DNA of 64,000 nucleotides, taken from contig JBMFOP010000001.1 of the NCBI GenBank assembly GCA_049969675.1, positions 22,546-86,545 of the forward strand, written 5' to 3'. Positions 39,114 through 47,154 of this stretch are shown piece by piece; the stretch's first letter is position 1, and the number at the start of each line of letters is the position of its first letter. Under the pieces are notes generated by a model. It searched no databases. It was not told the DNA's origin and was given only the letters and a program-made list of their open reading frames with translations. Source of the stretch: Myxococcota bacterium. GTDB taxonomy: Bacteria; Myxococcota; SpSt-1050. Made by a program: the position numbers and the translations under genes.

Positions 39114-39659
39114 TTGATGCCTCTTTGTGTGAAAGGAGGATTAATGGGCAAGAGTCCATCAGAGATAAGGCAGGAACAGAGAAAGCCAGTAAAAGTATTT
39201 ATTAATTTCAGGACAATAGACCAGTTTTATTCTGAAATAGGGACGAATCTATCTCTCGGAGGTGTATTTGTCAGGTCATCCAATCCGCTTCCGGTAGGGA
39301 CCGAGATTAAGATTAGTTTTAATATCCCGCAGTTTGGCTGTTATCTGGAATCTCAGGGAGTGGTGGTGCACAATGGGACTCTGGAGAATCCAGGTATGGG
39401 TATAAAGTTTAAGGGGTTATCAGATAGGGCAAAAAAGCTATTGCAGGATGTGCTGGATCACGAATTGTTGCCGCCAGGGGAAGAGCCGTCAGATGGAGAA
39501 AAGGGTGAGAGAAAAAAGACTAAAGTTACAGTGACTGTTGAGTCTCAGAATAAAGGAATAAAAAAGGCTAAGAGTTCAAGGACTGTTAGTAAGAGAGTTT
39601 CAAAAAAGGAAATATCAAAAGATTCAAAAAAAACTAAATGTGCAAAACGAAAGAGGTAG
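39114..39659 (+). CDS. PilZ domain protein with basic C-terminal tail
   Basis: A PilZ-like c-di-GMP-binding fold is suggested by RKPVKVFINFRT...GGVFVRSSNPLPVGTEIKISF. Lys-rich tail. The start could be the internal MGKS (39144). Confidence 0.5.
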   Translation: MMPLCVKGGLMGKSPSEIRQEQRKPVKVFINFRTIDQFYSEIGTNLSLGGVFVRSSNPLPVGTEIKISFNIPQFGCYLESQGVVVHNGTLENPGMGIKFKGLSDRAKKLLQDVLDHELLPPGEEPSDGEKGERKKTKVTVTVESQNKGIKKAKSSRTVSKRVSKKEISKDSKKTKCAKRKR

Positions 39660-39681
39660 AGTATAGTATCATAGGGTTTTA

Positions 39682-44024: not shown

Positions 44025-45833
44025 TTGCATAGGTATTATAAAGAGAATCAGGATATTGAAGGACAAAGGCTTGCCTGTGGTAAATATAGTCGCAGGGTTC
44101 TACAGGATCTGCTTAAACTATCAGATATTCATTGTAATATAATTGCAATGGGTTGGGTTGGAAATCGTATAGTGATTGATATTCTCCCACAGGGTAAAAA
44201 AGAGGACTCACTAATCACGCTTTATATTGCAAAGAGGGTAGATACTCAACCATCCCTTTTAAAGACCGACTTTCTGGATATATACTACAGTAGTAATAAG
44301 AATAACGAGGACTTTGCAAGACATATCCTATCTCTTAAGATTAATGATATCACTTTCGCTCAGCTAACGAAGATCTTAAAAGATGACCCTGAACTTGGAG
44401 ACCCATCTCTCTCTATGCCCACATCAGAGGCGGCGGATAGGCCAGAGAATCATCTGGACAGCTGGGGTGGAAGGGATTTATACGCCAATTTCTTCGCCGA
44501 GGGAGAATTTGCCAGAGGACAGTTAGATTCGGTTAATATCTATGAGAATTGTGTCTTTATTCAACATTCTGATATAGAATGCGTCTCGTTAAGGCCAAAT
44601 CTGGATTTGAGACTCATTAAGTTTCTGGTAAGATATCCATGGCTCTCCCCAAATCCAGAGAAATATAGTGGTATCAGACGTGATGAACTCCCGGATGTTA
44701 ATAAATTCTTCTCTACTGACCTCAGGGAGAAAGATATTATAATGGGGCATAATAAGGTTAGAGATGCACTTGAATATGTCCTTAATAATGTTAAGAAGAA
44801 GAATATCTTCCTCTCCAATACCTGCACCCCTGTTGTGATAGGGGAAGATGTAGAATCTTTAGTAAAAAAGGCTAAACAGAGGAGAAAGGACCTCTTATAT
44901 CTTACAGTCACTCCTCAATCAATGGAGGTAGTATTAAAGGACTTATTTAAAATTCCATCTAAAAGAATGAAGAGAAAGGCTCATAATCTGATTAATCTTA
45001 TGGGTTATGAAGATGATAATTACATAAGACAGTTAATAAAGTTTCTAAAAGATTTAGGAATTGAAGTAAATTCTACTGTTATACCTGATGTCTCAGTAAA
45101 GACCCTTAATAAATATTTTAAAGGCGGTGTTGATATACTAAAACCAAATTCTCTCTGGAGCCATCTCTATATGCAACTTAACTCTATGTCTGGACATAAA
45201 TATATTTCAATTGACTCACCATATGGCTTTTTCGGGACAATCAGATGGATAATTGAACTCTTAAGAATCCCTGGAAGAAAGATATCTGAGGATGAGATAA
45301 TGAAGAGAATAAAGCCCGAGATCATTGATAGATATTTGAGATTGAGAGAAGCAATGAAATCTATAGGTGTTATCTTCATTGTGAGAAAGGATGAAGTTGG
45401 ATATCTCACCGATTCTGCTAAGTCGTGGGGTGTACCTTTGATAAAGTTCTTCAGAGAGATGGGAAGTAAGATAGAGGTATTCATAAAGGCTCAAAGCCTT
45501 GAAGAGGCAAAGTCTGCATCAACTCAACTATTAGGTTTTATTTCGGATTATCATAATTTTGAGATAAGATATTTTGATTCTTTTGAGAATATGATGAGAC
45601 TGATAAAGAGTAGTATGGCTCAATTGGTTTTTACAAATCATTCAAATGATTGGAGGATAACATCGGGGGGAAAGCATTCTCTCTCACTTACGGATTTTGA
45701 AGTCGGTTTTGAAGGTGCAATATATACAATGGAAAATATTTTGAACCTCGCAAATAATCAATTTTTCAAGAGGTATGCAAGGTATTTACAGAGGGATTTT
45801 AAGGGAAGCTATGAAGAGAGAGAACAAAGGTAG
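44025..45833 (+). CDS. nitrogenase component 1-like (NifD/NifE-fold) oxidoreductase subunit, divergent, with N-terminal extension of about 150 aa
   Basis: IMGHNKVRDALEYVLNNVKKKNIFLSNTCTPVVIGEDVESLVKKA matches the NifD/NifE GGDKKL...STCPxGLIGDDIxAV region, including the P-cluster Cys154 equivalent. FIQHSDIECV is a possible HGPVGC equivalent. No obvious Fe-protein gene nearby. Confidence 0.5.
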   Translation: MHRYYKENQDIEGQRLACGKYSRRVLQDLLKLSDIHCNIIAMGWVGNRIVIDILPQGKKEDSLITLYIAKRVDTQPSLLKTDFLDIYYSSNKNNEDFARHILSLKINDITFAQLTKILKDDPELGDPSLSMPTSEAADRPENHLDSWGGRDLYANFFAEGEFARGQLDSVNIYENCVFIQHSDIECVSLRPNLDLRLIKFLVRYPWLSPNPEKYSGIRRDELPDVNKFFSTDLREKDIIMGHNKVRDALEYVLNNVKKKNIFLSNTCTPVVIGEDVESLVKKAKQRRKDLLYLTVTPQSMEVVLKDLFKIPSKRMKRKAHNLINLMGYEDDNYIRQLIKFLKDLGIEVNSTVIPDVSVKTLNKYFKGGVDILKPNSLWSHLYMQLNSMSGHKYISIDSPYGFFGTIRWIIELLRIPGRKISEDEIMKRIKPEIIDRYLRLREAMKSIGVIFIVRKDEVGYLTDSAKSWGVPLIKFFREMGSKIEVFIKAQSLEEAKSASTQLLGFISDYHNFEIRYFDSFENMMRLIKSSMAQLVFTNHSNDWRITSGGKHSLSLTDFEVGFEGAIYTMENILNLANNQFFKRYARYLQRDFKGSYEEREQR

Positions 45834-47154
45834 AAAATTCTCTCAGAGGTTACTGAGCCCATATATGGTGGGAGTCTATCTCGGTGTTAATGCTGTGAAG
45901 GATTTTTATCTGCTTGTAGATGGGCCGGATTGCTCATATATGAAGACCCAATATATAGGAATGAATCAGGACTTCTATGCCAATCTTACAAATCTATCTG
46001 GTTTTCACAGAATAGGAAATACTGCATTACATCCAATTATGATGGCATCTTCAAGAGAGGAGAAGATTCTCTCTGCTTTATTAAAGATTGCAAAAGGAGA
46101 ATTTGTCTCTGCGGTTGGTATCACTCCGATGCCAATGGCAGCGGTTACCGCGGTAGATTATAGTCGGTTATTAAGGGAGGTGAGCAGGAGATATAAAAAA
46201 CCAACATTTGAGTTCAAGAATAAATCACTCTCGGGGGATTGGATGGATGGTTACATGGAATTCGGGAAGGTGCTTGCATCCAGTATGGAGATTGGGAAGG
46301 TCAGGAAGAGACGAAGGTCTGTGGCTATAATCGGTTATTTATATGATAGAAACGAATATGATAATATTGCAAATATCGCTGAGCTCAAAAGAGTCTTTCA
46401 GGGGATTGGTGTAAATGTCGCGGGTATATGGTTTGATGGCGGCGGTTTTATGGATCTAAAATCAGTATCTGAGGCTGACCTGATTATTTCGTTTGGATAT
46501 CTCAGAGATGCTGCGAGAATCTTATCAGAGCGGCTAAAGACTCCGGTGATGGAATTTGATTATCCAGTGGGGTTTGAGCAGACGGGTGATATATTAAAGA
46601 GGGTATCTGAATACTTTGAAATCAGAGACGCATCCACCTTCATTGAGAGAGAGACAGAGGCAATTGTGAGGAGAGTAGAGTCACTTATAGAACAATACTT
46701 AATACGACTCAGGGTGTTTTATTGTGGGGACCCGATTCTATTTAATTCAATTAAATCAATGCTTGAACTTGTTGGAATGAAGATTGAATATGCCATTATT
46801 TCCAATACATCTGAGAAGTCATCTTATGTAAAGGAGCCAATTAAGAATATTATTTTTGAACCGTCTATCAACGATGTCTTTGAGGTTGGTCTAAAGATGG
46901 CAAGAGAGGATAAGATAGACCTATATGTCGGCAATAGTGATATGAGTTCATACTTTATCGGGAGTGGGAAGGCGGCGGTTGAGATTGGATTCCCTTCTTA
47001 TTTCTCGCATTGTATCGCAGAAATCCCTTATGTGGGTTATAGAGGGTATATGCATCTTCTGAACAGGATTATAAAAGAGCTCAGATTTGCTGAGGTCAGA
47101 AAGGTCTTTAGAGAGCAAGGGATAGAGTCATTCATAAAAAATAAAATTTTATAA
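45775..47154 (+). CDS. nitrogenase component 1-like (NifK/NifN/BchB-fold) subunit, divergent
   Basis: YLLVDGPDCSY resembles HGPxGC. The central region IIGYLYDRNEYDNIANIAELKRVFQGIGVNV...PVGFEQTGDILKRVSEYF matches the beta-subunit type. The C-terminus IDLYVGNSDMSSYF...EIGFPSYFSHCIAEIPYVGYRGYMHLLNRIIKEL matches the NifK-type (L)IGNS...GFP..DR...GY.G motif. The start may be the internal M at 45811 or 45862, since the track ORF overlaps the upstream gene by 59 nt. Confidence 0.55.
   Translation: MQGIYRGILREAMKRENKGRKFSQRLLSPYMVGVYLGVNAVKDFYLLVDGPDCSYMKTQYIGMNQDFYANLTNLSGFHRIGNTALHPIMMASSREEKILSALLKIAKGEFVSAVGITPMPMAAVTAVDYSRLLREVSRRYKKPTFEFKNKSLSGDWMDGYMEFGKVLASSMEIGKVRKRRRSVAIIGYLYDRNEYDNIANIAELKRVFQGIGVNVAGIWFDGGGFMDLKSVSEADLIISFGYLRDAARILSERLKTPVMEFDYPVGFEQTGDILKRVSEYFEIRDASTFIERETEAIVRRVESLIEQYLIRLRVFYCGDPILFNSIKSMLELVGMKIEYAIISNTSEKSSYVKEPIKNIIFEPSINDVFEVGLKMAREDKIDLYVGNSDMSSYFIGSGKAAVEIGFPSYFSHCIAEIPYVGYRGYMHLLNRIIKELRFAEVRKVFREQGIESFIKNKIL

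Follow-up and report, generated by a model that had tools for sequence, protein, structure and literature searches.

Seven genes on one strand

We analysed a 64,000-nucleotide stretch of DNA (the window) from the Myxococcota bacterium assembly GCA_049969675.1, contig JBMFOP010000001.1, positions 22,546 to 86,545, and within it a block of seven genes that ends in a nitrogenase-like pair. A first reading made from the sequence alone (the sequence-only reading) had taken the block for a translationally coupled operon encoding a candidate novel metallo-redox or cofactor-handling system. We lean, with some reserve, towards a different view. The seven genes would form one transcription unit of mixed function and not one pathway, and the nitrogenase-like pair at its end would work with a detached NifH-like protein (NflH). 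The open reading frames (ORFs) are all present on the + strand at 39114-47154, followed by a tRNA-Leu gene, as had been described. The features of the locus, with the evidence for each, are:

39086..39114, + strand: promoter-like site TTGCAA-17-TATTAT (consensus match, in the 159-nt divergent gap between rplU and the PilZ gene)
39144..39659, + strand: predicted PilZ-domain cyclic di-GMP (c-di-GMP) receptor, 171 aa, with a Lys/Arg-rich C-terminal tail (Pfam PilZ, binding motifs, ribosome-binding site)
39682..40500, + strand: Memo-family protein, 272 aa, of the AmmeMemoRadiSam system protein B type (Pfam Memo, TIGR04336)
40503..42056, + strand: J-domain co-chaperone (J-protein), 517 aa, with a DUF4388/PATAN-like N-terminal module, a J domain and C-terminal TPR (Pfam DnaJ)
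42053..43354, + strand: CapA/PGA_cap metallophosphatase-fold lipoprotein, 433 aa, predicted exported (Pfam PGA_cap, lipobox)
43356..43991, + strand: DUF374 protein, predicted LpxJ-family lipid A late (3' secondary) acyltransferase, 211 aa (Pfam DUF374, motifs)
44025..45833, + strand: NflD-like (alpha) subunit of a predicted Group VI-type nitrogenase-like enzyme, 602 aa (Pfam Oxidored_nitro, homology)
45811..47154, + strand: NflK-like (beta) subunit, 447 aa (Pfam Oxidored_nitro, homologues, AlphaFold2 fold)
47223..47313, + strand: tRNA-Leu(gag) at 47223-47305, then a nine-T run at 47305-47313 (ARAGORN, Rfam, sequence)

The gaps originally given for the block (22, 2, -4, 1, 33 and -59 nt) are arithmetically right for the longest ORFs, but the starts of the PilZ and beta genes had been extended too far. 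The most likely PilZ start is ATG 39144, which has an AAGGAGG ribosome-binding site (RBS) upstream and gives the 171-aa protein of the public annotation. The TTG at 39114 chosen earlier falls on the 3' end of the promoter-like TTGCAA-17-TATTAT site. The beta gene is annotated publicly from 45811 (447 aa, P0001), which makes the alpha/beta overlap 23 nt, in agreement with overlaps of 14-26 nt in sister genomes. We found no exact public match for the 459-aa reading of beta, the public start lying 12 codons later, while the 447-aa form was matched. The gene probably starts at 45811, with an overlap of 23 rather than 59 nt.

With the corrected starts the intergenic spacing ranges from -23 to 33 nt, all on the same strand. 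The J-protein and CapA genes are joined by an ATGA start/stop overlap, and the alpha gene is preceded by its own RBS. However, a gap of 35 nt or less separates 35 of the 45 co-directional gene pairs of the window (median 3). The adjacent run on the opposite strand, lpxC-ruvB-ruvA-ruvC-yebC-rpmA-rplU, also consists of seven tightly packed genes, and their functions are clearly unrelated. Because tight packing of unrelated genes is the norm in this window, spacing says little here about shared function.

A consensus search for promoters and terminators was uninformative in the AT-rich DNA of the window. On the + strand two weak terminator-like matches were obtained, both within coding sequence and none at any gene junction. 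A scan of the window with Rfam returned two tRNAs and nothing else. By its sequence and position the site at 39086..39114 is the likely promoter of the operon, and the T-run after the tRNA-Leu gene likely marks the 3' end of the transcript, in this genome only.

The block is conserved within one clade

It had been recognised at the outset that a neighbourhood conserved nowhere else would speak against the proposed system. Instead, the block recurs with unchanged gene content and order in at least eight other lineages, all belonging to one deep, low-GC, Myxococcota-like clade of uncultured bacteria. The block is carried by loci L004/L011, L009/L096, L089, L090/L121, L093/L094 and L095; it is cut by contig ends in L097 and L122/L123 and partial in L010. 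Across these sisters the block proteins are 52-87% identical to those of the window, and RuvB is 83-94% identical. In the seven lineages with called genes all gaps within the block are 43 nt or less, with 8-40 nt between the PilZ and Memo genes and 8-43 nt between the LpxJ and alpha genes. The 2-nt gap from the Memo to the J-protein gene and the overlap of the J-protein and CapA genes recur in all seven.

The flanks of the block are rearranged. Upstream there are two contexts, either rplU-rpmA-yebC-ruvCAB or FG-GAP/UnbV_ASPIC, and the downstream neighbour differs in nearly every lineage. Here the block is followed by the tRNA-Leu gene and a GGDEF gene. In the sisters it is followed by an HTH gene with pilMNOPQ, a 533-aa gene on the - strand, a DUF362-ferredoxin gene on the - strand, deoxyhypusine synthase, rpsT/argB/argF, or hisG/hisH, and no downstream gene of the window was found after the block in any sister locus. 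Breakpoints at both ends combined with an intact interior speak for selection on contiguity, that is, an operon. Unlike tight spacing, conservation with rearranged flanks exceeds what is expected by chance. Thus the earlier claim of an operon stands as far as a conserved operon-like unit is concerned (same strand, short gaps, no terminators at the junctions), and its further step to a single transcript is one that these features suggest.

Two downstream features were considered as additional members of the unit or partners of its products. We rejected the tRNA-Leu gene as part of the unit because eight sister loci have no tRNA after the block, and the GGDEF cyclase as a partner of the PilZ protein because it is not conserved next to the block. 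Lying just past the tRNA-Leu gene, this HAMP-GAF-GGDEF diguanylate cyclase gene (47439-49361) has a product that could supply the PilZ protein, and it is found after the block in this genome only. It is intact in the window and split in two in the near-identical public contig L001.

It is possible, though unlikely, that the block is two or three transcription units (PilZ, Memo-J-CapA-LpxJ and NflD-NflK) packed together in a compact genome, the pair having been appended to an older envelope/chaperone operon. The two largest gaps, 22 and 33 nt, do fall at those boundaries, while the inner junctions measure 2, -4 and 1 nt. The RBS of the alpha gene, and promoter-like hexamers inside the upstream genes, would also fit separate units. 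However, gaps that stay within 8-43 nt across the clade are too small for a terminator plus a promoter, and no junction carries a terminator-like site. Moreover, the sub-blocks are never separated in any lineage, though their surroundings have often been rearranged.

The five upstream genes have mixed predicted functions

The first gene encodes a protein that matches Pfam PilZ (E = 1.5e-11) and carries both c-di-GMP motifs, RxxxR as RQEQR at residues 9-13 and NxSxxG as NLSLGG at residues 35-40, each kept in six lineages. This protein is a predicted c-di-GMP receptor. Its C-terminus (39480-39659) is a Lys/Arg-rich tail of about 50 residues whose character, and not its sequence, is kept in six of six lineages.

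The second protein matches Pfam Memo (E = 2e-56) and scores 245 bits with the NCBIfam model TIGR04336 (AmmeMemoSam_B), for which the cut-off is 26. Residues His47, His77, His127, His187 and Cys225 are invariant in seven clade members. Members of this family normally accompany AMMECR1 and a radical S-adenosylmethionine (SAM) activase, and both had been reported missing beside the Memo gene. We scanned all window ORFs of at least 150 aa except the last gene of the type II secretion region (50413-51534) and agree that neither is among them. The sole radical SAM gene found in the window is SPL-like and lies 11 kb downstream.

The third protein matches Pfam DnaJ (E = 1e-13, 51.4 bits), and DUF4388 and TPR are matched below threshold. 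The HPD motif of its J domain (residues 335-337) is invariant in 15 sequences. DUF4388 was matched in 11 of the 15 family members (best E = 7e-13); it is the PATAN domain found in regulators of the Myxococcus and Geobacter type. The same DUF4388-J-TPR architecture is seen in two distant relatives, P0093 and P0094. An AlphaFold2 model (AF2; predicted local distance difference test, pLDDT, 79) gave Foldseek matches to the J-domain and TPR pieces only, and residues 1-255 had no solved-structure match in this search.

The fourth protein matches Pfam PGA_cap (E = 6e-63). It has a signal peptide with the lipobox LSAC (Cys21), and a cysteine closes the signal peptide in six lineages. This predicts that CapA is an exported lipoprotein. 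Because of the lipoprotein signal, CapA would act outside the cytoplasm, apart from the nitrogenase-like proteins.

The fifth protein matches Pfam DUF374 (E = 1.5e-24, 85.8 bits). The DUF374 family has been identified as LpxJ, a lipid A late acyltransferase, and the critical residues of Rickettsia typhi LpxJ are H61, D86, D132 and W172-D173 (PMC6148475). By eye, we compared this list with the DUF374 protein and matched its residues to H44, D68, D114 and W155-D156. These lie in the motifs FH (43-44), SKDGE (66-70), DGPRGP (114-119) and SWD (154-156), which are kept in six lineages. R. typhi W60 is Phe here. The genes lpxC and lptF/lptG lie in the same window. On these motifs we assign the DUF374 protein to the LpxJ family of lipid A late acyltransferases.

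The association is confined to the clade

We sought to determine whether the seven families are found together elsewhere. A scan of species-representative genomes for the nitrogenase-like pair gave 190 loci, of which 80 were fetched for analysis. Four families were scored around 81 non-clade loci of the pair's family, 48 of which span at least 15 kb. Neither phmmer nor tblastn detected a homologue of PilZ, Memo, CapA or DUF374 in any of them within 10 kb. Starting from the J-protein and Memo genes gave a similar result. The identity of J-protein homologues drops from at least 65%, reached in the clade only, to 23-27%, and P0094, the only distant relative whose context was examined, adjoins none of the other six families. 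The identity of Memo homologues drops from at least 63% to at most 35%, and the relatives at or below 35% have none of the other six genes nearby. As no co-occurrence was seen in the loci examined outside the clade, the association is a lineage-specific arrangement.

These results bear on the idea that the block is one dedicated pathway, in which the Memo protein, the J-protein, CapA and the acyltransferase would share one (metallo)cofactor or lipid-like substrate with a nitrogenase-like reductase, PilZ perhaps placing them under the control of c-di-GMP. We regard this as improbable. In its favour, at least eight other lineages keep the whole block, and both its ends coincide with breakpoints. 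The Memo-J gap and the J/CapA overlap, constant in all seven lineages with called genes, also speak for it, as do the nearly equal counts of clade members in which the J-protein (13) and beta (12) were found. However, the families did not co-occur in the 81 non-clade loci, near the closest Memo relatives or beside P0094. LpxJ has a defined and unrelated role in lipid A synthesis, CapA is a predicted exported lipoprotein whereas NflD and NflK are cytoplasmic, and an equally tight string of mixed function lies next door. The proposal of one novel metallo-redox or cofactor system thus finds little support: the association is confined to the clade, the pair already belongs to a described family (see below), LpxJ belongs to lipid A synthesis, CapA would work outside the cytoplasm, and the packing is ordinary.

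A more specific version would have a Group VI-type reductase leave its customary NifH-like and radical SAM neighbours and be recruited into a c-di-GMP-controlled envelope programme together with Memo, a dedicated J-protein, the exported CapA-like phosphoesterase and LpxJ, with a lipid A-related or envelope-bound substrate. We hold this one-module reading to be quite improbable. If true, it would provide the first physiological context for any Group VI nitrogenase-like enzyme.

The last two genes encode a divergent Group VI nitrogenase-like pair

Both subunits match Pfam Oxidored_nitro, alpha with E = 7e-29 over residues 225-575 and beta with E = 2e-43. In the protein database beta has 79 homologues, 12 of which are at least 60% identical and make up the clade. 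The remaining ones are 27-41% identical and come from metagenome-assembled genomes labelled Myxococcota, Deltaproteobacteria or Elusimicrobia. The pair is 30-41% identical to NflK/NflD-like genes that adjoin NifH-like and radical SAM genes in Myxococcota and Elusimicrobiota, and alpha is 34% identical over its full length to a Myxococcota NflD-like protein whose gene adjoins NflH. In most of the homologous loci a NifH-like gene precedes the pair, and radical SAM genes accompany it.

Using tblastn, we found that beta is 30-33% identical (E = 1e-66 to 1e-69) to sequences in the Elusimicrobia genomes GWF2_62_30 (L066), GWA2_66_18 (L072) and GWA2_69_24 (L079), to which alpha also aligns. These three genomes are named in the paper that defined a 'novel nitrogenase paralog', Group VI (Meheust et al. 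2020, 10.1101/765248). By homology, then, the pair is a divergent member of the Group VI nitrogenase-like (NFL) family, which is described but uncharacterised. In a neighbour-joining tree the clade forms one long branch within the NFL family. According to a 2026 review the function of Group VI is still unknown, and reduction of a tetrapyrrole-type cofactor has been proposed (PMC13474568 section 7).

We then considered which cluster ligands the pair retains. Alpha Cys186 is found in 106 of 106 homologues and Cys267 in 105 of 106, and 93% of 110 beta homologues have Cys41 (numbered Cys53 in the 459-aa form); all three are retained here. In addition, 32 invariant alpha columns are preserved. The only cysteines of alpha are at positions 18, 37, 176, 186 and 267, and beta has a single conserved one. 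Because alpha has no cysteine beyond residue 267, an equivalent of Cys275, the ligand of the iron-molybdenum cofactor (FeMo-co), is excluded. Judged by cysteine positions rather than a residue-by-residue alignment with NifD, the pair lacks FeMo-co ligands and has fewer than six P-cluster cysteines. Alpha lacks a third cysteine that 80% of the family has; the residue is Ala in this protein, and most of the clade members checked have Ala or Ser. We rejected its loss as a mark of changed function, as the same change occurs in homologues with an adjacent NifH-like gene.

The AF2 model of beta (pLDDT 90.3) shows the full three-domain fold of component-1 proteins. In structure comparison it matched NifN, NifK, VnfK, AnfK, BchB and MarK about equally well, at TM scores of 0.7-0.8 and 13-18% identity. 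The best matches of an alpha profile in the PDB were the methylthio-alkane reductase MarD (E = 1e-22) and NifE (E = 1e-21), while the first approximately 210 residues had no solved-structure match in this profile search. Scores with NCBIfam equivalog models were far below the cut-offs: 56.8 against 505 bits for NifE, 42.7 against 490 for BchB, 47.4 against 529 for BchZ and 28 against 268 for CfbD.

Alpha has a family-specific N-terminal extension of about 175 aa (44025-44549) that is conserved in the clade and in Myxococcota homologues. This rare module matches no Pfam family and has no solved-structure match by sequence. When 1.84 billion cluster representatives were searched exhaustively with HMMER, just 24 had it; almost all of these are NflD-sized (about 600-630 aa) and carry it N-terminally.

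Several observations were made on the wider family. One group of Myxococcota loci (L005-L008, L013, 4188-14762) shows a fixed Group VI gene set, with genes for an approximately 990-aa protein with a weak DUF483 match, NflH, NflD, NflK, an 819-aa radical SAM protein and a cation-efflux transporter. In many Elusimicrobiota loci a single unbroken ORF of about 770-800 aa spans both the NifH-like and the NflD-like part (L072 7691-9991, L063 351-2762 and L062 7621-9966, with similar ones in L082, L088, L057 and L076). This suggests a natural NflH-NflD fusion protein. A locus binned as a Nanoarchaeota archaeon (L051, JBMCSP010000010.1) encodes an NflD/K-like pair 31% identical to that of the window, and is probably a binning error.

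A NifH-like gene is found away from the pair in a sister lineage

Since a NifH-like gene adjoins most pairs of the family, we asked where the clade might encode one. Sister contig L121, the continuation of L090, carries an intact NifH-like gene of 270 aa (16096-16908). Downstream of beta by 4.7 kb, it comes directly after a PEGA-domain gene, and between it and the block lie five unrelated genes, of which two are on the opposite strand. Its product has the P-loop GKGGVGKS and both cluster cysteines (CAGRG and VVCGGFA), is 48% identical to the Myxococcota Group VI NflH, and gives the same sub-threshold NCBIfam pattern as the NflH of L005 and of GWA2_69_24. A homologue search with a 51-aa NifH fragment of L090 returned short fragments only. 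NflD/K pairs with no NifH-like gene within 10 kb were also found in other Myxococcota. The simplest reading of these contigs is that the clade keeps NflH, away from the pair, and we infer that a detached NflH is used in the present genome as well.

That the pair has instead lost its link to NflH and acquired a use without ATP-driven electron transfer (as a scaffold, a sensor, or a reductase with another donor) is very unlikely: the absence of a NifH-like gene within 64 kb, the long branch of the clade and the replaced third cysteine would fit it, but the essentially invariant cysteines and the 32 alpha columns are kept, a sister locus has an intact NflH near the block, the same cysteine is lost in homologues next to a NifH-like gene, and other Myxococcota also have pairs distant from NflH.

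A probable transcription unit of mixed function

Our data lead us to favour one transcription unit of mixed function, ended by an NflD/NflK pair that works with a detached NflH. Transcription would start at the site upstream of the PilZ gene and end at the T-run after the tRNA-Leu gene. The products would serve several separate jobs. One would be signalling and proteostasis, with the PilZ protein binding c-di-GMP and carrying a basic tail, and the PATAN(DUF4388)-J-TPR co-chaperone recruiting Hsp70. Another would concern the envelope, with an exported CapA-like metallophosphatase lipoprotein and an LpxJ that would add a secondary acyl chain to lipid A. The Memo-family metalloprotein would have a job of its own. 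NflD and NflK would assemble like other component-1 proteins into the catalytic pair of a Group VI reductase. This pair would hold a simple inter-subunit Fe-S cluster on alpha-Cys186, alpha-Cys267, beta-Cys41 and one non-cysteine ligand, with no FeMo-co site. Its electrons would come from an NflH-type ATPase whose gene lies elsewhere in the genome, and its substrate may be a tetrapyrrole-like molecule, as guessed in the literature. The single transcript, the type of cluster and the absence of a shared pathway are each what we infer.

Four observations weigh against this interpretation. The window holds no NifH-like sequence by tblastn or by Pfam. Breakpoints that in many lineages coincide exactly with the two block ends also fit selection for shared function. 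The Memo protein, CapA and the J-protein may yet be linked to the pair. Finally, promoter-like matches are frequent in this AT-rich DNA, with 50 found and 29 expected, so that there may be internal promoters.

Group VI enzymes have no known substrate, and their gene neighbourhoods had been the sole clue to what they do. In this clade the catalytic pair is stably detached from its ATPase partner and from radical SAM genes, and its two genes have a fixed place as the last ones of a housekeeping-type operon. This suggests that gene neighbourhood is a less reliable guide to the function of the NFL family than had been assumed. The five upstream genes are ordinary. More generally, in compact genomes the translational coupling of seven genes does not by itself imply one pathway. 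The clade does offer a compact low-GC gene set (NflD, NflK and the NflH of the sister contig), expression of which would allow tests of activity and of cluster content.

Elsewhere in the window, genes for type II secretion (secretin, GspE/F, pseudopilins, GspK/M) form an ordinary cluster at 3103-16236. Genes for a PP2C phosphatase that carries a cNMP-binding domain, for thioredoxin reductase and for Rho come next.

Comparison with known systems

The combination of these seven genes is known from no characterised pathway, as the sequence-only reading had said, and each part was compared with its own known system. The Memo protein resembles the AmmeMemoRadiSam system (TIGR04335/04336/04337) in that it scores as protein B. 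It differs in having no AMMECR1 or activase among the scanned window ORFs, and in the clade its gene is fixed 2 nt upstream of the J-protein gene. The DUF374 protein keeps the critical residues of R. typhi LpxJ, but has Phe in place of W60.

With the characterised component-1 proteins (NifDK/NifEN, DPOR BchNB, COR BchYZ, CfbD and MarDK) the pair shares the three-domain fold, and the first and third cluster-cysteine positions of alpha are kept. In contrast, the beta model matches these proteins at only 13-18% identity, and the equivalog scores are far below the cut-offs.

The closest system is Group VI NFL. The likeness consists of full-length homology of both alpha and beta, few conserved cysteines, the absence of a FeMo-co ligand and a matching NflH in a sister lineage. 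Unlike most members, the window pair has no adjacent NflH and no neighbourhood rich in radical SAM genes. Instead, it stands at the tail of a PilZ-Memo-J-CapA-LpxJ operon, in a clade that forms a separate long branch of the family.

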